64,000 nucleotides of DNA from Planctomycetota bacterium (GTDB lineage: Bacteria > Planctomycetota > UBA11346). Under the pieces are notes generated by a model. It searched no databases. It was not told the origin of the DNA and saw only the letters and a program-made list of their open reading frames with translations. Position numbers and translations under genes: made by a program. Of the stretch, positions 865 through 11,114 are shown in pieces; the first letter of the stretch is position 1, and every line of letters starts with the position of its first letter. Where the stretch lies: assembly GCA_038231435.1 (NCBI GenBank), contig JBBRLJ010000005.1, forward strand, positions 1-64,000. The letters are read 5' to 3'.

Positions 865-1668
865 CGGTACCGATCCGATGCGTACGGTCGCAGGACGGTG
901 TTGGCCTCGAACGGGACAACCGTTCTCCCCGAGTCGGGCGTGGACAACCAGATCGGGTTCACGGGGCGGTATGAGGACAGCGAGACGGGGCTGGTGTACA
1001 TGCGGTCACGATACCTGAGCGCTTCGCTAGGGAGATTTCTGCAACGCGACATGTGTCCTAAAATTGCGCGATACCAAGATTACTCTAATCTAAGATCTGA
1101 GCAAAAGCGTGAGATTGCAAAGCGCGCCATCACGGTCGATCCTCTGGTTCGCCAAACCATGCCCAGGGCGGGAGCTGGATACCAAGATGGGATGAATCTT
1201 TATAATTCATATTTTATTCCCAATACCACTGACCCACTTGGAATGGATTCTCCTGGCTGCGACTTGGGTGCGGCTCAATCTATTATGGAGACTAATTGTA
1301 TTTTAGGGTGCTGCGCGAATCATGATAAATGTTATCACGATAACAATTGTTCTTTCACCTCATGGTTTGGGAATCTTACGCCTTTTTGGAAATGCAGTCC
1401 TTGCATGAAATGTAATAGAGACGTTTACCAATGCGTTCTCAATTGCGCCAATCCATTGGGCTCATGGCCAGAGGCACCGGGCCTTTACTATGACGGAGTG
1501 ACGGACACCTTCTTCAATAATCCAAGAGACCCGCGGATGGGTAATAGCACTACAGGAACGCCGAGGGCCAATCTTCCTCCACCGTATCCTGAGGTTCCGG
1601 CACCACTTTCAACCCCACCAATTACGAGCTTGCCATACCCAAGGGCATCGAATGGTATCCTTTGGTGA
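817..1668 (+). CDS. Rhs-associated core plus C-terminal Cys-rich phospholipase A2-like toxin
   Basis: GFTGRYEDSETGLVYMRSRY..GRFLQRD..DGMNLY..PNTTDPLG core; CT has CCANHDKCY (PLA2 His-Asp motif); GC drops in the 3' part. Confidence 0.85.
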   Translation: MSESSAAAERHPQGAHRYRSDAYGRRTVLASNGTTVLPESGVDNQIGFTGRYEDSETGLVYMRSRYLSASLGRFLQRDMCPKIARYQDYSNLRSEQKREIAKRAITVDPLVRQTMPRAGAGYQDGMNLYNSYFIPNTTDPLGMDSPGCDLGAAQSIMETNCILGCCANHDKCYHDNNCSFTSWFGNLTPFWKCSPCMKCNRDVYQCVLNCANPLGSWPEAPGLYYDGVTDTFFNNPRDPRMGNSTTGTPRANLPPPYPEVPAPLSTPPITSLPYPRASNGILW

Positions 1669-2009
1669 TCTGGATGTGGTATATCGGCTCATTCGCTATT
1701 TCCATCACGGCGGCATTTACGGCCTACAGCACTTATCATTTTTGGATTAGTATAATGATTTTCCAAATCATAAGTTCAGCAGCGATTTTAGGCTTAATGC
1801 CGAAGAAGAAGATCGGTATCATTGGAGGGTTTTTGGGAATGATTGTGGGCTGCGTGGTGGGGATGGGTCTTGACAACCAAGGTCACAATCTTTGGCCGAT
1901 AGAACTGTCCATTATTGCATTGTTTTTATGCCCAATATCATTCATTGCGCTTATTTCGGCAATTTCACTGGACCGCAAAGCGAAACTCAGGGCACGCGCA
2001 TTACATTAA
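1662..2009 (+). CDS. Probable cognate immunity protein (about 4 TM helices)
   Basis: Overlaps the toxin stop, AT-rich, very hydrophobic 115 aa. Confidence 0.65.
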   Translation: MVIWMWYIGSFAISITAAFTAYSTYHFWISIMIFQIISSAAILGLMPKKKIGIIGGFLGMIVGCVVGMGLDNQGHNLWPIELSIIALFLCPISFIALISAISLDRKAKLRARALH

Positions 2010-2589
2010 CTTACCGTAAGTAAGGTTCAGATATTCATCACACCCTGCTCTCCGCGTTTTCACGCGGCGACGCGCTCCCAGTGCACCAGCGTACCCGCCA
2101 TGCGTGATCTCATCCTAATGGTGCCTGCCGTCGCTCCGATTTCTGGACCCATCGCAACGGAAGGTGAAATCCTTGGTACGGCTGGTACCGTTTTGGCGTG
2201 AAGGCCGCTGCTAGAAGTTCATCGCGCTCGCACACCAACGCCGGCGTTCCGCGCTGGCTGGGATCGCGCAGCGCGCGCTGCGGGGTTTCTTCGCGCGCTG
2301 AACGATAGCAATGGCAACATGCTCACGAAGGTCGCGGCCGTTGGTACCTCGGCCCATCCAACACCGATGCTTTTGGAACGAGAATCACCATCGCAAGTCG
2401 AGGGGCGGCTCAAATAGCAGCGCTGCTTGTCGAGCTGTGTCCAGCAGGGTCGTGGACGGTTGGACTTGGTGGTAACGTTACGCCGGCAGATCCGAATTTC
2501 TGCAATGAATCGCAGAGCGGCGGATGTATTTCAACCACGATTCCCAGGAAGTGTGAATCCTCAAGCTATCCAGTTTCGTGCTGCTGCAT

Positions 2590-2805
2590 TTGCGGCGTAC
2601 ATGCGGCCGATCTCGGCGATCATTCCCGCTGCAAATGGCTCGTGCTCACTGATGTCGTGGAACTTTCGCCGCGCATGCGCCCAGCATCCGATGGCCGTGT
2701 CGCGTCCAGGGCCGTAGAGCCGCTCGTGCCCCGCATAGGCATCAGCGACGATGAAGCCGCGGTAGTCGCCGAGGAATTCAGCCGGATGTCGACCCTCGCG
2801 ACTAC
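2590..2805 (-). pseudogene. IS66-family transposase TnpC fragment
   Basis: HPAEFLGDYRGFIVADAYAG..GCWAHARRKF signature; no intact ends. Confidence 0.85.
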
Positions 2806-3409
2806 TGCTGCGAATCATCCAGGACGTGGTCATGCATACTCCTCGTGCGATACTTACCCTCAACTTGGCCATTCCGCCAGGACTCCCATGACAGTGAAAG
2901 GGCAATGGTTGTGCGTTCGAACCGGTTGAGTGATAAAATGAGTTCCTCGACGGTCAGGACGATAATCCACAAGCGATAGAAAAACCCTTTCCTTATATTC
3001 ATATTGGGGGCGGGATACATGAAGCATTGACGGTCACGACTTGCAGCCTTCCGACTGGCACTGCTGCGCTAATTGCATTCCACCCACTGCGGCGCCAGTT
3101 GGAGCCGGAATTGGCTATGGGCCGTCTCACTTCGGTCGAGCCCAGAGGCCGTCCAGCGTCGCCAGGATCAATCTTGGGGTGCGGCCCCTTCGGCTGGGCC
3201 TGCCGACTGCGGCAAGGCCCACCGGGGGAGAGTACCTGCTTATCTAAAACGCCTTCCGAATCCTGCAGGATGAGGGAGTCCGTGTTTCTGTTCTCTCGGG
3301 GTCGATTCCGGCCTACTTAATTTTATTTGCCGAAATAGTGGTGAGCCTGTGCCTGGATAGTGCCGCACATTTGCAAATCGGAGTCACGCATTCAGCCTGG
3401 TGCGGGCCT

Positions 3410-3544
3410 GGGGGCTTTAGGTCACCAAAAGGGGGCCTATACATATGAAAGGGCATAGCTTATTCTATTACAAGAAAAACGATATAGGTTTACGATAGAG
3501 ATAAGCTATGTATAGCCCCCCTTTATACGACCAAAAGCCCCCCC
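3410..3544. repeat. Long imperfect inverted repeat (~135 bp)
   Basis: GGGGGCTTTAGGTCACCAAAAGGGGGCCTATACATA..GCTTATTCTAT versus ATAGAGATAAGCTATGTATAGCCCCCCTTTATACGACCAAAAGCCCCC. Confidence 0.85.
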
Positions 3545-3656
3545 TAAATCATGAGTAGCAAGTAATGGACGAAAATACACTCGCCCACTCTGCTCGCTTA
3601 AATGGCCCACGTCCTTCAGGTGTCTGCGATGCCTTGTGAGACTTAGAGGAGGTTTT

Positions 3657-3684
3657 CCTACCGTTATCAAAGCAGTAGGTCGAG
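3657..3684. other. Putative left att core of the integrative element
   Basis: CCTACCGT-TATCAAA-GCAGTAGGTCGAG; 3672-3684 is the exact reverse complement of 9359-9371 in the tRNA. Confidence 0.6.
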
Positions 3685-3992
3685 CAGGCTCATACCGAGT
3701 TATGCCAAAGCGTTGTGCCTGAGATCACAAGCGTTGGTATAACGTTGGCAGCCTTTTAAATTTGCGAGCAAGGTGCGTTGAGGAGCTGGTCTTCACGATA
3801 TTTTCACAAGGCGTAGGCCGAATGAATCCGAGGCTCATCAGGGCGTCTCTCCGATGGTTCCATCTGCTCTGATCGCGCGTCTCCACCCGCACTTCGTGGT
3901 CGTGGGAGGTGTCTGGATGCCGAGGAACTTATTTTCTTTATCTGGACGAGACACCACCCCGATCCGGTTAGTGCTCACCGATCCTACAGCCG

Positions 3993-6329
3993 TCATTTCT
4001 TCATCGGCATCACGAGCTTCCTTTGCAGACGCTTGCCCGAACTCCCAGACGGAGAACCGGCAGAACCGGTGGAAGCCTTTTTTGATATCGCCGGTTTCAC
4101 CGGTTCATCTTGCAGATGCAGGCGAGGGTTCACTTCGTATCGTTCCGGTGGGCGTCCTGGCCCGCTTCTACCTGGGCTTGCTTGGCGGATGTAGCCGCGT
4201 TCTTCCAACTCGGCAAGAACGGGGTCCAGCATGGCTGCCTCTCGGAAGGCGCTGTTCTCGATCCACTTGTAGGCTTGGCTTCGAGTGAACTCGATGACAT
4301 CAGGCTGGGCGCGTAGCTTCTTTAGCAAGCGCTTCGCGTCGTGCACTGCCTGCGAGTCGATCGCATTTCCGAGGGCTGCCATGAAATGTTCACGGAGGTA
4401 GGGGTGCCAAGCGATCGCCGCCCGCATGGTCGCCTCCTTGATCTCGTCTCCCCCGTCGACCAGCATGTGGAGCGTGAGGGCTACGCGGAAGATGTGCCCA
4501 CGGCTTTTCCCATCCCAGCCGACGTCGTCCAAGGCATCACCCATCCGCTTTGCCTCTCGATCATAGTACTCTCCTGCCAATTTGGTTGCCCTAGCGGACA
4601 GCTTAATGCAGCGCGCCTTGATCGTACTTCTGACCAAGGGCGGGTCATTTTCTAGGACAGAGAAGATTCCCATTCCTTTTGCGCGGGCATCGTCTTGCGC
4701 GTTCACGATCCTTCCTGGACGGGGCAAGTCGAGCAGCTTCAGCACGAGCTTGGCCCACCGCTCCGACATCGTCGGCGGGACAGGATTCGAATCCCACTTG
4801 TCGAGACCGATGTGGGATCTCGGTTCGATGATCAAGTAGCGCGCAAGGAAACCTCGGCCCACCGCTGAGCGGTTCTGCACTATGTCGCTCAACACCGCTG
4901 GCTGAACGGTCAGGATTTGGCAGACCAACGGCCTGTCCACTATCAGGGGATCCCGCCTGGCGCGTATGATTGTCACACGAGTTCCTGTGTATCCCTTATT
5001 GACGATCTCGACCCTGGGCTCGTCATCGCTGTACCTTCCGAGCAGGGCTGCAATGGCGGCTCCCTCGTCATCGACGATGCCGACGACGCCCCCGTTGTGC
5101 AGCATGGCCTCGGCCAGCGCCTCCGCTGTCGTGTCGGTGATGGTGAGGATGGGGCAACGCAGCTCTGGCCACTTCGACAAGGATTCAGCCAAACCCTCGA
5201 CCAGTTGGCGTTGAGGGATTTGTTTCTTCGGTTCTTTGTTCCCGCCTATTTCACCTTTCTCAAGGTGCTTAATAAGTTGGCTTCGCCGGGCGTTGTACTT
5301 AGCCAGCTCCCGCCCGAGGCGTTCCCCCGTTGCCTTCTCCCAGTCGCGAATCGGGCGAGTGATTGCTGAAAACACGGGCGACTTGCGTTCTGAGGGTCGC
5401 CCCAACGCTAGAATCCACAAGGGAGCTTGCTCTCGGTATCCCTCCCTCACCTCAAGTTCGACGGCGCCACAGATCGCCAGATTGGCCGCGCCGAGGATCA
5501 GCAGGAGCGGCCAGTCTTTTGCCACTCCGATCTCCTCGCTCGTGGCGTGAGCGAGATCACGAAGCCATGCCCCGGAATCCGGGATGAGCTGGAATAGGTC
5601 GGCCTCGGGGGGAGCCTTCGCAGTGAATGAGGTGGGAGCTTCCCAATCCTCGACATTGGCTCTCAGCTCATCGTCAGGAGATAGGGCGACCCCAGGTTGA
5701 TTGACCAGCTTTCTGATCACGTCCGGGTCCCCCTCGTAGTCGGCCAGGTCCCATCCCTGCGGCAAAGCGCCGAGCCGTTTCTCGACCTGCCGGAGATCCA
5801 CGATCTTGTAGCACCTGCGCCGAAGCTTCGCCGCGATCGCTCGCATTGCCGCTCGCCCATGCTCGTCGTTGTCGGGCCAGAGAATGATTCGGTCTCGTTC
5901 GACGAGAGTCGCGACGTCGGCGTGCGCCGCTGCGTTTGCACCACCCAACCAAGTTACCACGACATGATCGGGAAAGATTTTCTGCGCCGCGTCTGCTGTC
6001 TTTGGGCCCTCGACCACGATGGCCGGAGCCTCGGGTCGTCGCGCGAGACGGTCGAGGCCGTAGAGGGGACGCATTCCCCTGATGCCGAGAAACATCCATG
6101 CCTTGCTGCCATCTGCCAGTTCACGGTAGGTCAAGGGCAGGATGGTTTTTTTGTCATTCCTATCGAATCGCCATTCATACAGGAGAACGCCTCCGTGCTC
6201 ATCGAGGTATGTCCATGTCGCCGTGGGGCGACCTCTGGTGGGGTGCGCCGACGGCGGCGGCGGTGCGCCGTCGGGGACAGGCATGATTGGACGGCCGTGG
6301 TCGTCGGCCGGAGCAGCAGTGAGTTTCAT
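3993..6329 (-). CDS. Toprim primase fused to DUF3987/YfjI-like helicase, C-terminal winged helix
   Basis: VVEGPKTADAA and ILWPDND (Toprim); GRPSERKS and GIVDDEG (Walker A/B-like); ELEERGYIR..YEVNP. Confidence 0.85.
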   Translation of the reverse strand: MKLTAAPADDHGRPIMPVPDGAPPPPSAHPTRGRPTATWTYLDEHGGVLLYEWRFDRNDKKTILPLTYRELADGSKAWMFLGIRGMRPLYGLDRLARRPEAPAIVVEGPKTADAAQKIFPDHVVVTWLGGANAAAHADVATLVERDRIILWPDNDEHGRAAMRAIAAKLRRRCYKIVDLRQVEKRLGALPQGWDLADYEGDPDVIRKLVNQPGVALSPDDELRANVEDWEAPTSFTAKAPPEADLFQLIPDSGAWLRDLAHATSEEIGVAKDWPLLLILGAANLAICGAVELEVREGYREQAPLWILALGRPSERKSPVFSAITRPIRDWEKATGERLGRELAKYNARRSQLIKHLEKGEIGGNKEPKKQIPQRQLVEGLAESLSKWPELRCPILTITDTTAEALAEAMLHNGGVVGIVDDEGAAIAALLGRYSDDEPRVEIVNKGYTGTRVTIIRARRDPLIVDRPLVCQILTVQPAVLSDIVQNRSAVGRGFLARYLIIEPRSHIGLDKWDSNPVPPTMSERWAKLVLKLLDLPRPGRIVNAQDDARAKGMGIFSVLENDPPLVRSTIKARCIKLSARATKLAGEYYDREAKRMGDALDDVGWDGKSRGHIFRVALTLHMLVDGGDEIKEATMRAAIAWHPYLREHFMAALGNAIDSQAVHDAKRLLKKLRAQPDVIEFTRSQAYKWIENSAFREAAMLDPVLAELEERGYIRQASPGRSGPGRPPERYEVNPRLHLQDEPVKPAISKKASTGSAGSPSGSSGKRLQRKLVMPMKK

Positions 6330-6643
6330 GAAAGGGTACCTTTCAGTGATTGGGCCACTCGCCTGGCAGCTTCGCCCTGTGTGGTGCGGTGGAGGAATGC
6401 GTACAACGAGATGAGGTCACCGCCGCGGTCACCGGTGGCGAAGTCGCACCATCGGCCGGTGCTAAGGTTCACCTTGAACGACCCGCGGGTGCGGTCTGGG
6501 CGGCGGGGGTTGAGGGAGCACCACTCGTCACCAATCAGATCGCCGTCCGGGAGCCAGCGAGCGAGTAGGAAAGCCGAATTCCCGAGAGCCGAGGCGGCAA
6601 TGGCTCGGAAATCTTGTGGGAACCTAATCCGGTTAACGCTCAC
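6326..6643 (-). CDS. Stand-alone primase N-terminal (CHC2-like) domain protein
   Basis: LARWLPDG..NPRRPDRTRGSFKVNLSTGRWCDFATGDRGGDLISLYA; stop overlaps the primase ATG (ATGA); GTG start inferred. Confidence 0.75.
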   Translation of the reverse strand: MSVNRIRFPQDFRAIAASALGNSAFLLARWLPDGDLIGDEWCSLNPRRPDRTRGSFKVNLSTGRWCDFATGDRGGDLISLYAFLHRTTQGEAARRVAQSLKGTLS

Positions 6644-7004
6644 GGTGTATCCCGCGCAATGCGTCAAGGTGCTCGGCGACCTTCGCTGGGCCGTCTGTGG
6701 CTCTCCATGCCGAGACATCCGCCGACTTGATGCTGTAGCGAACGCGGTTTCCCCGCGTTGATGTGCTGCGTTCGCTCAACAGGTGACCGGGGTGTCCAGG
6801 CGAGAGCCTTGTCGCTGCGGCGACGAGTTCCGTCCGTACCCGGACGAGGCGCGCAGCTTGGGTGAGCGACAGTCGCCGCTCGGCTTGGTTCAATTGACGA
6901 GTAAAAGTTGGATGGTCGGAGAGTTGCTTCGCCAACAGCGGGGCAAGTGCTGTGGCTAGTGCGGCGGCGTCGAACGACATTTGAATGTGGATCTTTGATG
7001 TCAT
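6633..7004 (-). CDS. Excisionase-like HTH protein
   Basis: RRLSLTQAARLVRVRTELVAAA..RYSIKSADVSAW; first gene of the replication operon. Confidence 0.65.
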   Translation of the reverse strand: MTSKIHIQMSFDAAALATALAPLLAKQLSDHPTFTRQLNQAERRLSLTQAARLVRVRTELVAAATRLSPGHPGHLLSERSTSTRGNRVRYSIKSADVSAWRATDGPAKVAEHLDALRGIHRER

Positions 7005-7037
7005 TGGAGAAGCCTAAGTCCGATGCCGATGTATTCC

Positions 7038-7055
7038 GGGTACGCTTGTGTACCC
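7038..7055. promoter_or_regulatory. Candidate operator between divergent genes
   Basis: GGGTAC-N6-GTACCC in the 106-bp divergent gap. Confidence 0.4.
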
Positions 7056-7110
7056 ACTTTGAACCGATACAAATTTTGACCACTATCAGGCACGGAAGTC
7101 GTGGGGGATT

Positions 7111-7836
7111 ATGGAAAATTTCGACAAACTGACTATCATCCAGCTCAAAAACTCGCGCGCGCAGCGAGTTGGAGCCATCATCGATCTAGTGGCAGCGAAT
7201 ACGAAGCTCAGAACACTCAACGCCTTGCTGGGTCAATGCGGCATCCACGACGGCAGTAATTTCCGCAAGTGGATGAGGGAGAAAACCCGAACAGATAGAC
7301 GATCTAGGCGAGAAACTAAACGCGAGATAAAAATTGGCCTCAACGATTTTGTGAGTAGCGTAAATAATTTGATCTGTGACAAAAATATCCTGCCTCAATC
7401 GTCTAGGTTTTTGCCGTTGGAGTACATGCGGATTAAATTAGCCGAGGAGATAATGGAGACGGAAGATGACGGACTCAATTATAAAGTCGTTTTAAGGACT
7501 TTTGGAGAACTTTCCGTAGAATGGCTTGAGCATGGGCCACCGTGTAGCGGTGAGCCATGGTGGTCTCGACCGGTGGGAAGTGCGGTGCAGAAGAAGTGCA
7601 CCTTTACCCTGCGCGAGATAGCGTGGTTGCGCAAGTCCATGCGTTTTTACCTTAAGGCAGAGCGCTACATGAGGGGCCGGGTCGCTGAAGACGCTCTGAT
7701 CAACGCGGCCAAAAAGGTGGGGATTCACGACGCCCTTGAGGCGAGCAAGCGACCTCATCTTGTCCGCAAAAGATTGGATTCACGGGACTCATCCTCTTCA
7801 AAAAGAACTCGCCTTCCAGCCACCCCTCTGCCTTGA
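7111..7836 (+). CDS. Hypothetical protein, possible HTH repressor
   Basis: Divergent from xis; LNALLGQCGIHDGSNFRKWM resembles an HTH; lower GC. Confidence 0.5.
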   Translation: MENFDKLTIIQLKNSRAQRVGAIIDLVAANTKLRTLNALLGQCGIHDGSNFRKWMREKTRTDRRSRRETKREIKIGLNDFVSSVNNLICDKNILPQSSRFLPLEYMRIKLAEEIMETEDDGLNYKVVLRTFGELSVEWLEHGPPCSGEPWWSRPVGSAVQKKCTFTLREIAWLRKSMRFYLKAERYMRGRVAEDALINAAKKVGIHDALEASKRPHLVRKRLDSRDSSSSKRTRLPATPLP

Positions 7837-8998
7837 CTTGCTCCCGATACTCGTCCGCGCCTCGCGAGTAGTGTTTGCTTGTTACCATCGAGGCGTGCCC
7901 CACCGCGTCCATCACGAGGTACGGTGTCATCCCCGTGGCCGTCAACAAGCTGGCGACGCTGTGGCGGAAGCAGTGGACGCTTCGTCCCATCGGCTCAACC
8001 CCGACCGTTCGCAGATACTGTTGCATCATCTCGTTCGATCGGTCGCTCGTAGACCTTCCCTCGACGGAGAATATCGGGGAGGTTCCGACTCCAGGGGCGC
8101 GCTGAAGGATGGCCTTGAGCTCTGGCTGGATCGGCGCGCGCACGTCCATCTCTGTCTTCGTAATCTCTGCCGGCACCCGGATGCGGTTAGCCTTCCAGTC
8201 GACCATACTCCAGGTGAGGGCGCGCAAGGTCGACGAGCGCAGGCCGGTGTACGCGGCAAGGACGGCGAACATCCACCAGGGTTCGTCGCGGTGGTCATCT
8301 GAGACGATTCGCCGCAGCTCCTCGATGGTGTAGACCTTGCGGAACCTCCTCGCCTCCTTGAAGAGGTCGCAGGCCTGGAACGGGTTGTAGAGCAATCGGC
8401 GCTGCTTGATGCCGAAGTTGGCGATCGTGCGCAGGATCAGGAGGCAGGAATTCTTTGTCCTCGCCGTCGACGGCTTTGGCTTCTTCTGTCCCTTCCTGCA
8501 TGCAGCCATCTTGGAGAGCCAATATTGGGTTCGCTCCGGGAGCGACGGATCCGCGAGGTCGTTGATCCCGGCGGCGATCGCCTTCGCCGTCGCTGTCCGT
8601 ACTTCTCGGATGCGAGATTCCGTGCGACCAAGGCTCTCAAGCCGGACGATGAACTGGTTGGCCAGCTCTTCGACCGTCGGGGTGGCAGCGGACTCCAACC
8701 CCAGGCGGACCTTCGCGGCCATGTTCGCGGCCCAGTCATCTCCCTCCCTGCATCCCGGGCCCCGACGTCCCTTGTCCACCTCATCATGCGGGAAGGTCTT
8801 GCGAACGTACTTCCTGGTCACCCGATCCCGGACGCCGTAGAGCCATCGGCCACCAGTCCGACCTCGGTCATCCTTGGTCCACTGGTCGAAGATCGTGATG
8901 CCGTCACGGCCTCGGATGCGCGCGATACGGGCAGGCGTAGCTGTTGCGGGCGGGGTATCAGCAACGAAAGCAGCCGAGACTGGGGACATGTCTTGCAT
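7700..8998 (-). CDS. Tyrosine recombinase/integrase
   Basis: YTGLR (R), ITKT (K), HCFRH (HxxR), VGHAS (H), SKHYS (Y); start uncertain. Confidence 0.95.
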   Translation of the reverse strand: MQDMSPVSAAFVADTPPATATPARIARIRGRDGITIFDQWTKDDRGRTGGRWLYGVRDRVTRKYVRKTFPHDEVDKGRRGPGCREGDDWAANMAAKVRLGLESAATPTVEELANQFIVRLESLGRTESRIREVRTATAKAIAAGINDLADPSLPERTQYWLSKMAACRKGQKKPKPSTARTKNSCLLILRTIANFGIKQRRLLYNPFQACDLFKEARRFRKVYTIEELRRIVSDDHRDEPWWMFAVLAAYTGLRSSTLRALTWSMVDWKANRIRVPAEITKTEMDVRAPIQPELKAILQRAPGVGTSPIFSVEGRSTSDRSNEMMQQYLRTVGVEPMGRSVHCFRHSVASLLTATGMTPYLVMDAVGHASMVTSKHYSRGADEYREQVKAEGWLEGEFFLKRMSPVNPIFCGQDEVACSPQGRRESPPFWPR

Positions 8999-9225
8999 GG
9001 TAGCTGGTCATCGTGCGCTCCTGTCGGAGATCGTACACGGCCGTCCCGGAGTCTCCCGGACGAGTCCCGCAGTGCCGGAACTGACCCGGGCCGCGCCTGG
9101 TTGGTTCCGCAAGCAAGGAAGCGCTCGCCAGCGAAACCCCACCGGTTCCCCCGGGGGCTGAGGGCGCCGACCCTAAAGAGCCCTCGGGAACGATCAGGAC
9201 GCGTGGGATCTCGTTTTCCCCGCCG

Positions 9226-9249
9226 CTGTTACACCAACTGTTAAACCAA
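9226..9249. promoter_or_regulatory. Candidate integrase arm-type sites
   Basis: Tandem CTGTTACACCAA / CTGTTAAACCAA between integrase and tRNA. Confidence 0.55.
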
Positions 9250-9296
9250 GCCCCGGAATCTGGAGTTTTGTGGGCTGCTCGCAGTGATCTCTAAAA

Positions 9297-9331
9297 ACGA
9301 AAAAACCCTGGCAAAACCAGGGTTTTTTCGT
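9297..9331 (-). terminator. Intrinsic (likely bidirectional) terminator after the tRNA
   Basis: Perfect 15-bp IR ACGAAAAAACCCTGG-caaaa-CCAGGGTTTTTTCGT. Confidence 0.85.
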
Positions 9332-9333
9332 GT

Positions 9334-9410
9334 TGGAGCGGGCGAAGAGACTCGAACTCTCGACCTACTGCATGGCAAGCAGTCGCTCTAGCCAACTGAG
9401 CTACGCCCGC
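9334..9410 (-). tRNA. tRNA-Gly(GCC)
   Basis: GCGGGCGTAGCTCAGTTGGCTAGAGCGACTGCTTGCCATGCAGTAGGTCGAGAGTTCGAGTCTCTTCGCCCGCTCCA; cloverleaf, TTCGA T-loop, CCA end. Confidence 0.97.
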
Positions 9411-11057: not shown

Positions 11058-11114
11058 TATCCGCTATCCGCTATCCGCTATCCGCTATCCGCTATCCGCT
11101 ATCCGCTATCCGCT
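11058..11114. repeat. Heptamer tandem repeat (TATCCGC)x8
   Basis: Counted directly; intergenic between convergent genes. Confidence 0.95.

Follow-up and report, generated by a model that had tools for sequence, protein, structure and literature searches.

The locus described here raises the question of how a mobile element that restores a transfer RNA (tRNA) gene at one end could have come to lack the displaced 3' part of that gene at the other. It lies in the first 64,000 bases of contig JBBRLJ010000005.1 (contig C5) of the Planctomycetota bacterium assembly GCA_038231435.1 (GTDB lineage UBA11346; 5.2 Mb in 108 contigs, 87.6% complete), a stretch referred to below as the window. The element is 5.7 kb long and satellite-like, carries an intact tyrosine integrase (Int) and sits in the anticodon loop of a tRNA-Gly(GCC) gene. 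Its ends form a 13-bp inverted repeat with unlike 7-bp overlaps. The reading favoured here, at a probability of roughly 0.55, is that the integrase recombined the attachment (att) site attR with a look-alike secondary site in a neighbouring island, deleting the tRNA 3' copy, after which the element could not excise without breaking the tRNA gene.

Sites are written below in tRNA sense, with B, C and C' for core arms, X2 for the outer half-site at the left end and X1 for its presumed partner half; these half-sites are distinct from the sequencing runs X1 and X2. The features of the two ends are as follows.

3657..3664, minus strand: outer half-site X2, a non-tRNA look-alike of the core arm (6/8), presumably half of the secondary site
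3665..3671, minus strand: left 7-bp overlap TTTGATA, its first 2 bases as in the anticodon loop TTGCCAT
3672..3684, minus strand: core arm C of attP/attR, a 13-bp inverted copy of the tRNA 3' anticodon arm, with counterparts in relatives
3697..3720, plus strand: predicted arm-type site pair, period 13, rank 7 of 383,856 placements
3732-3753: weaker predicted arm-type pair, period 11
9226..9248, plus strand: predicted arm-type site pair, period 12, rank 2 of 383,856, oriented as the left pair
9294..9334, minus strand: terminator-like hairpin behind the tRNA gene (inverted repeat I24)
9334..9410, minus strand: intact tRNA-Gly(GCC), constituting attL, with B at 9379-9383, the overlap at 9372-9378 and C' at 9359-9371

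The left 13-mer (3672-3684) and 9359-9371 are exact reverse complements, with no further match on either side. The right spacer is the anticodon loop of the tRNA gene, and the right site reads B-TTGCCAT-C'; the left site reads C-TTTGATA-X2, C being the inverted copy of C'. The two spacers are identical at 2/7 positions, both adjoining the left 13-mer, and X2 agrees with the core arm at 6/8. No copy of the tRNA 3' half is present within the window, and the only piece of it in the 108 contigs is one of 26-27 nt on contig C64. An earlier note on this DNA, made from the letters alone, had reported the inverted repeat, the loop spacer with its two shared bases and the missing direct repeat, and all of these observations were reproduced.

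The same note had left room for a chance origin of the pattern. In the 9.3 kb the 13-mer would be expected 1.1e-4 times, the probability of an outer half-site of at least 6/8 is 0.0046, and that of a match at the first two spacer bases is 0.05. Among 56 ARAGORN tRNA calls, none has a longer inverted copy of its 3' anticodon arm in the 10 kb downstream than the 13 nt found here (next 11, 10, 9 and 9), and a spacer starting like the gene's own loop together with an outer half of at least 6/8 was seen in none of the 13 other tRNA calls listed. The junction is not due to chance. A further exact copy of the 13-mer occurs on contig C13, without a symmetric partner. The loop of tRNA-Ser(TGA) resembles the left spacer at 6/7 positions, but it was rejected as its source, since no Ser 3' half lies behind.

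Arm-type sites were predicted with a matrix built from 26 such units, which 13 relatives supplied out of 18 loci tried and the window none; all 383,856 placements in the window were scored with it. As the pairs of rank 2 and 7 lie at the two ends, both ends carry core features together with predicted arm sites; these pairs and the junction statistics bear out the suggestion that the left site is a core junction of the integrase with a mismatched overlap. The right pair at 9226 has no second copy in the genome at up to 1 mismatch per unit. The top-ranked placement (62403) has low unit identity and was taken as chance, and a pair resembling the right one at the end of contig C29 belongs to an unrelated integrase. 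The arrangement is also found in two samples: a single Logan contig of run X1, possibly the source of the assembly, covers 961-9362 unbroken, and one of run X2 covers 3414-3973, across the left junction. All runs supporting the junction come from one study, and run X4 (share 0.09) was left out of the evidence. The joint of 9371 to 3672, indicative of excision or a circle, was not listed in the contigs of 4 runs, which drop rare forms and show presence, not absence.

Normal ends can be judged from the rest of this integrase family. The window integrase has 17 strong relatives (40-56% identity), the closest being P0002-P0004 (50-56%); the named records of the nearest integrases are metagenome-assembled genomes of Planctomycetota. 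The clade occurs in 10 of 401 phylum genomes, all within the window's family, and in 15 of 48 family genomes. The comparison of ends covered twelve close loci, L039 and L041 being left out of the att-site analysis. An att site is visible in eight of them (L016, L017, L018, L019, L020, L024, L167 and L171) and none in L021, L068, L088 and L168. All eight contain, in this order, a C arm, a 7-bp overlap and the tRNA 3' part. The C arm is an inverted copy of the tRNA stem at 11/13 positions in L024 and 7/8 in L016 and L017, and more weakly in L019, L020 and L171. Locus L020 is a 6.7-kb contig with terminally repeated ends, that is, a circle of 6.6 kb, in which arms, terminator, tRNA-Gly 3' half, overlap, C arm, arms and integrase follow one another as a whole attP. 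Given the arms of the relatives and this attP, the 13-bp inverted repeat corresponds to the ordinary C/C' symmetry of an anticodon-loop attP. It is thus not an alternative to a duplicated tRNA end, as had been proposed; the relatives have both.

Matched overlaps are the rule in this family. The cognate 7-mer is kept in 7 of the 8 close relatives, and identical cores were found at both ends of all five elements with two recognisable ends, located at tRNA-Met (L167), tRNA-Cys (L158), the 3' end of tRNA-Glu (L166), an intergenic site (L165) and tRNA-Gly (L061, which holds two internal family integrases). L166 and L165 had been candidates for further mismatched ends and were rejected when plain direct repeats of 14 and 15 bp were found. 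Distant anticodon-type sites match a cognate loop in 9/9 cases, five checked against the tRNA of their own genome and four (L157, L160, L161 and L162) against the loops of the window genome only. The 7-mer TTGCCAT is present in 21/21 other tRNA-Gly 3' copies fetched from family genomes, whichever integrase accompanies them. On the phylogenetic tree the window integrase falls among close members with matched overlaps (clade support 95/91), the inner order of the clade not being resolved. The 7/8 close relatives and 5/5 two-ended elements with matched overlaps speak against the homology-relaxed integrase offered by the earlier note as one of two explanations.

The other explanation offered was an internal accretion junction with its true boundary further left. 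In its favour are the foreign-armed piece on C64 and the DNA left of the junction, which is island-like and of low GC content up to the contig end. Plain tandem accretion alone, however, should have left the junction with a tRNA 3' half, and a second event is therefore needed. Relaxed integration cannot explain the absence of the 3' half either, because the host 3' half would still follow the spacer. The confinement of the match to the two bases beside C, together with the core-like X2, indicates an integrase crossover as this second event, in which the overlap and B' would have been replaced by Ox-X2. The features of a secondary junction are present: a 13/13 core arm on the element side, predicted arm pairs, a 6/8 half-site at the exact spacing and an overlap matched at 2/7, at one edge.

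The starting point of the favoured scheme can be seen directly, with attL as B-TTGCCAT-C', the left end as C-TTTGATA-X2, and arm-like pairs inside both ends. Judging from the relatives, a normal integration would have come first, with an original attR of the form C-TTGCCAT-tRNA 3' half. Synapsis by Int of this attR and a more leftward secondary site, X1-TTTGATA-X2, would have followed; the two matching base pairs next to C would have licensed the first strand exchange, and the mismatched product would have been fixed by replication, as described for ICEBs1. The DNA between the two sites would have been lost, comprising the tRNA 3' copy and probably the tRNA-proximal part of an older island. 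In the simplest history, an older island ending on C64 was present, the element was added at the tRNA gene, and an Int-made deletion ran from attR into the older island. Recombination of attL with the new attR is predicted to yield B-overlap-X2, a tRNA gene without its 3' half; the layout of the sites agrees here with what the earlier note had foreseen.

The gene at 9334-9410 is the single tRNA gene of the window, restored at attL, and an identical gene is present in several family genomes. The assembly has no other canonical tRNA-Gly(GCC), the two further GCC calls being unlike a tRNA, and GGC accounts for 41,625 of the 62,496 Gly codons in 932 long open reading frames (ORFs). Cells from which the element had excised would therefore be selected against, and the element is likely grounded, that is, stuck in the tRNA gene.

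Several observations weigh against this reconstruction. The overlap of one of the eight close relatives, L017, is altered to TTATCAT. The left arm units agree with the right ones at no more than 8/11 positions and lie about 25 nt from the core, as against near-identical units at both ends, about 70-90 nt from the core, in the relatives; the left end could therefore come from a sister element. Compared with L020 and L167, att sites and arms are in reversed orientation to the gene body, the integrase following the intact tRNA and not the C arm. All element genes look intact, with no sign of long immobility. Searches for an uncut secondary site gave no match in viral or Logan contigs, and none spanning the junction in 47 genomes of the family or 400 of the phylum. 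The incompleteness of the assembly means that a tRNA 3' copy or a second tRNA gene could be missing from it, and the nearest integrases, P0002-P0004, were compared as proteins only. An Int-made deletion beside the enzyme's own site has its precedent in lambda deletions that reportedly end in the core. As to L017 itself, a base change in the stem copy of its attR (L017:410-440) improves the symmetry with its own C arm, and L016, at the same host site, has the cognate loop. The integrase of L166 likewise lies behind the intact tRNA.

It is possible, if improbable, that the same Int crossover took place in another geometry: a circle entered the secondary site first and the composite then entered the tRNA gene, or attR was the site of an insertion or inversion of foreign DNA. 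In either case the tRNA 3' copy would have moved to the distal end of the left island and not been lost. The junction is accounted for just as well by a top-strand product C-Ox-X2 ... X1-O-B', PMC6379469 cites inversions promoted by Int between attP and secondary sites, and the C64 piece, with TTGCCAT and 19 nt more, lies 2.7 kb from a contig end. However, the arm in front of that piece matches the core at only 1/8, a site of this type recurs in L049 and so looks like the end of another element, and no end overlap joins C5 and C64. An enzyme like IntDOT, the integrase of CTnDOT, for which one or two matched bases at the first exchange suffice and mismatched overlaps are the normal mode, could pick up or rearrange flanking DNA from its base in the tRNA gene. 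Two matches with five mismatches are indeed the IntDOT pattern (the 2-bp requirement is given in PMC2817482), the non-cognate overlap of L017 retains TT, and the closest integrases were compared as proteins only; nevertheless this is unlikely, given the matched overlaps in 7/8 close loci, 5/5 two-ended elements and 5/5 distant sites checked in their own genome, and the absence behind the spacer of the tRNA 3' half that relaxed entry would leave. A variant confined to a family branch with attP flipped against the genes, in which IntDOT-like tolerance evolved, is similarly doubtful; if true, the element would be a one-ended recombinase, anchored in an essential tRNA gene, whose free C end deletes, inverts or captures island DNA at look-alikes matched at 2 bp.

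Loss of the tRNA 3' copy without the integrase, through a deletion driven by an insertion sequence (IS) or by microhomology slippage that stopped two bases into the overlap, appears distinctly unlikely. An IS66 fragment and broken RHS-type frames do lie in the left flank, and the family has many truncated tRNA-Gly 3' copies (C64, L049, L073 and L019), but those copies all retain the whole overlap and 17-19 further bases, and a breakpoint within the 7-bp overlap would be demanded along with a 6/8 half-site at the exact spacing (0.0046). Finally, a chance match or an assembly chimera, with no true element end at 3672, is very improbable: the sequence comes from a metagenome assembly, 3.6 kb from a contig end, with supporting runs from one study, but the Logan contigs, junction statistics, arm-pair ranks and comparison of 56 tRNA calls all contradict such an artefact.

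Comparison with known systems places the locus among recognised types. The Islander anticodon (A) class shares with it a tyrosine integrase, a tRNA restored at one end and an anticodon-loop crossover (PMC4383910), but the displaced tRNA 3' fragment of that class is absent here. The Islander signature would for this reason miss the element, which is filed as a damaged derivative of the A class, not an intact member. The mycobacteriophage Fionnbharth has an integrase directed at the anticodon loop of tRNA-Lys, and its secondary sites conserve only 5'-CTT of the core (PMC10865867). The likeness extends to the anticodon-loop target, the 5' core bases kept at the same core end and the paired arm-type sites (predicted here); an attP inverted relative to the rest of a phage genome is also noted in that paper. 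In Fionnbharth the tRNA 3' half is absent from attP and a tRNA is encoded by the phage itself, whereas here the element restores the tRNA and the host-side copy is missing. Kinship of the integrase sequences is not evident, the best phage matches being 23-28%. As regards tRNA-dependent lysogeny, no replacement tRNA was found besides the one at attL, and the attP of L020 contains the 3' half.

The mismatched junction itself has parallels in secondary insertions of ICEBs1, in which replication leaves attL and attR with differing spacers and excision is poor (PMC3715440). Those were laboratory insertions, made with the primary site removed and with both ends secondary, whereas one end is the primary tRNA here; conjugation genes are also absent from this element. 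Sa3int phages likewise have unlike attL and attR (PMC8649754). In lambda it is the initial 3 bp of the overlap on which the first exchange depends (cited in PMC2297512), and the mv4 Int requires overlap identity (bioRxiv 10.1101/2023.11.06.565760). IntDOT resembles the present case in its 2-bp identity at one edge of a 7-bp overlap (PMC2817482), and CTnBST and NBU1 are grouped with it on this account (cited in PMC2297512 and PMC10865867). A mismatched overlap is, however, the normal reaction of IntDOT, and unlike attL and attR overlaps are not the rule among the relatives of the window integrase. The element shares with 'grounded' prophages the loss of a usable att site (PMC6379469). It resembles minimal phage satellites, the phage-inducible chromosomal islands (PICI) and minimalist islands (PICMI), in size and in combining an integrase and small ORFs with a primase-helicase, a circular form being seen only in L020; unlike them, it has no AlpA/Fis, helper or packaging gene recognised by Pfam or PHROG.

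The locus is thus likely one natural case of a known kind of accident and not a new mechanism; the junction alone does not demonstrate new recombination chemistry. Under the favoured reading it would be a natural, base-resolved fossil of an off-target integrase crossover, an event otherwise found described from laboratory selections, and would show how an element can become grounded through an essential tRNA, which acts as the lock, while all of its genes stay intact. Such ends are invisible to finders that seek a displaced tRNA fragment, and would be revealed by an inverted anticodon-arm copy with arm-site pairs.

The genes between the two ends are the following.

3993..6329, minus strand: Toprim and DUF3987 primase-helicase, 778 aa, open frame (Pfam PF13148, PF01751; PHROG 2373, 239)
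6326..6718, minus strand: ORF of primase N-terminal type, no Pfam or PHROG match; fused to Toprim in the relative L166
6633..7004, minus strand: small ORF, putative excisionase or helix-turn-helix protein by position only, no Pfam or PHROG match
7111..7836, plus strand: opposite-strand ORF of lower GC content, no family match (Pfam, PHROG)
7700..8998, minus strand: tyrosine integrase, 432 aa (PF00589, phrog_1), with R254, K281, H342, R345, H368 and Y377 all present in the alignment

At 6326-6329 the stop and start codons of the primase N-terminal ORF and the Toprim-DUF3987 gene overlap, with a hairpin over the ribosome-binding site; L166 has one fused ORF, and no indel was found at the split in the runs compared. 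Repeats at about 4051-4107, in the 3' end of the primase-helicase gene, are presumably iteron-like. A contig of run X2 differs by 4 substitutions at 8949-8971, in the integrase 5' region, which suggests a sister element in that sample. PDB profiles gave weak matches to Xer/Int chains only, and no close relative of the integrase was found in viral contigs. The symmetric core pattern has 39 exact matches in viral contigs, dropped as chance for want of a tRNA or related integrase, and 2 matches in 47 other family genomes, neither beside a related integrase in the loci examined. A search of the open-access literature, including a Planctomycetes-directed query, found no paper on this clade. The clade has switched between targets, which comprise at least nine tRNAs and an intergenic site (Gly, Met, Lys, Cys, His, Glu (two), Ser and Gln; family loci L156-L171), and the subsites used (loop, T-loop and 3' end), each with its own 11-bp-period arm pair, make a natural series for core and arm specificity. 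The element L165, at a non-tRNA site, contains a 25-nt internal tRNA-Cys piece spanning the anticodon stem-loop (L165:11145-11174, G412:C200), a possible landing site for elements that target tRNA-Cys.

Left of the junction the GC content is 47-59% from 1 to 4 kb, versus 60-70% right of the tRNA, and no integrase gene is present up to the contig end. Besides the IS66 fragment, assigned by Pfam, positions 123-2009 hold what we take to be broken RHS-type frames, a cysteine-rich tail and a small hydrophobic ORF, possibly an immunity gene; the RHS-type frames have no Pfam match, and similar cores occur at the start of contig C31. A 36-bp inverted repeat (83%) with a 61-nt AT-rich spacer at 3410-3542, unique in the genome and all loci examined, looks like an orphan replication origin or element end.

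The C64 piece (C64:21512-21538; G000:C64:21507-21538, L069) adjoins a transposase-like gene, presumably with an integrase core, and may be the end of the older island. The truncated site and the same gene recur in a second genome of the genus (L049), and the C64 site is therefore probably the end of another element. No contig, C64 included, shares an end overlap of at least 12 nt with the left end of C5, and no helpful synteny was found. The truncated tRNA-Gly 3' copies of C64, L049, L073 and L019 all retain the anticodon loop; in three genomes they break off at one and the same T-loop base (19 nt, as against 17 nt in L019). In C64, L049 and L019 the transposase-like gene follows 200-250 bp further in. 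These features suggest either another site-specific event, at the T loop, or an IS that targets att regions. Nearly the same 130-bp stretch, probably an IS end, occurs near a tRNA or att site at the 5' ends of G000:C63 and L024. Right of the tRNA, positions 11058-11113 of the window consist of about 8 tandem copies of a 7-bp repeat.

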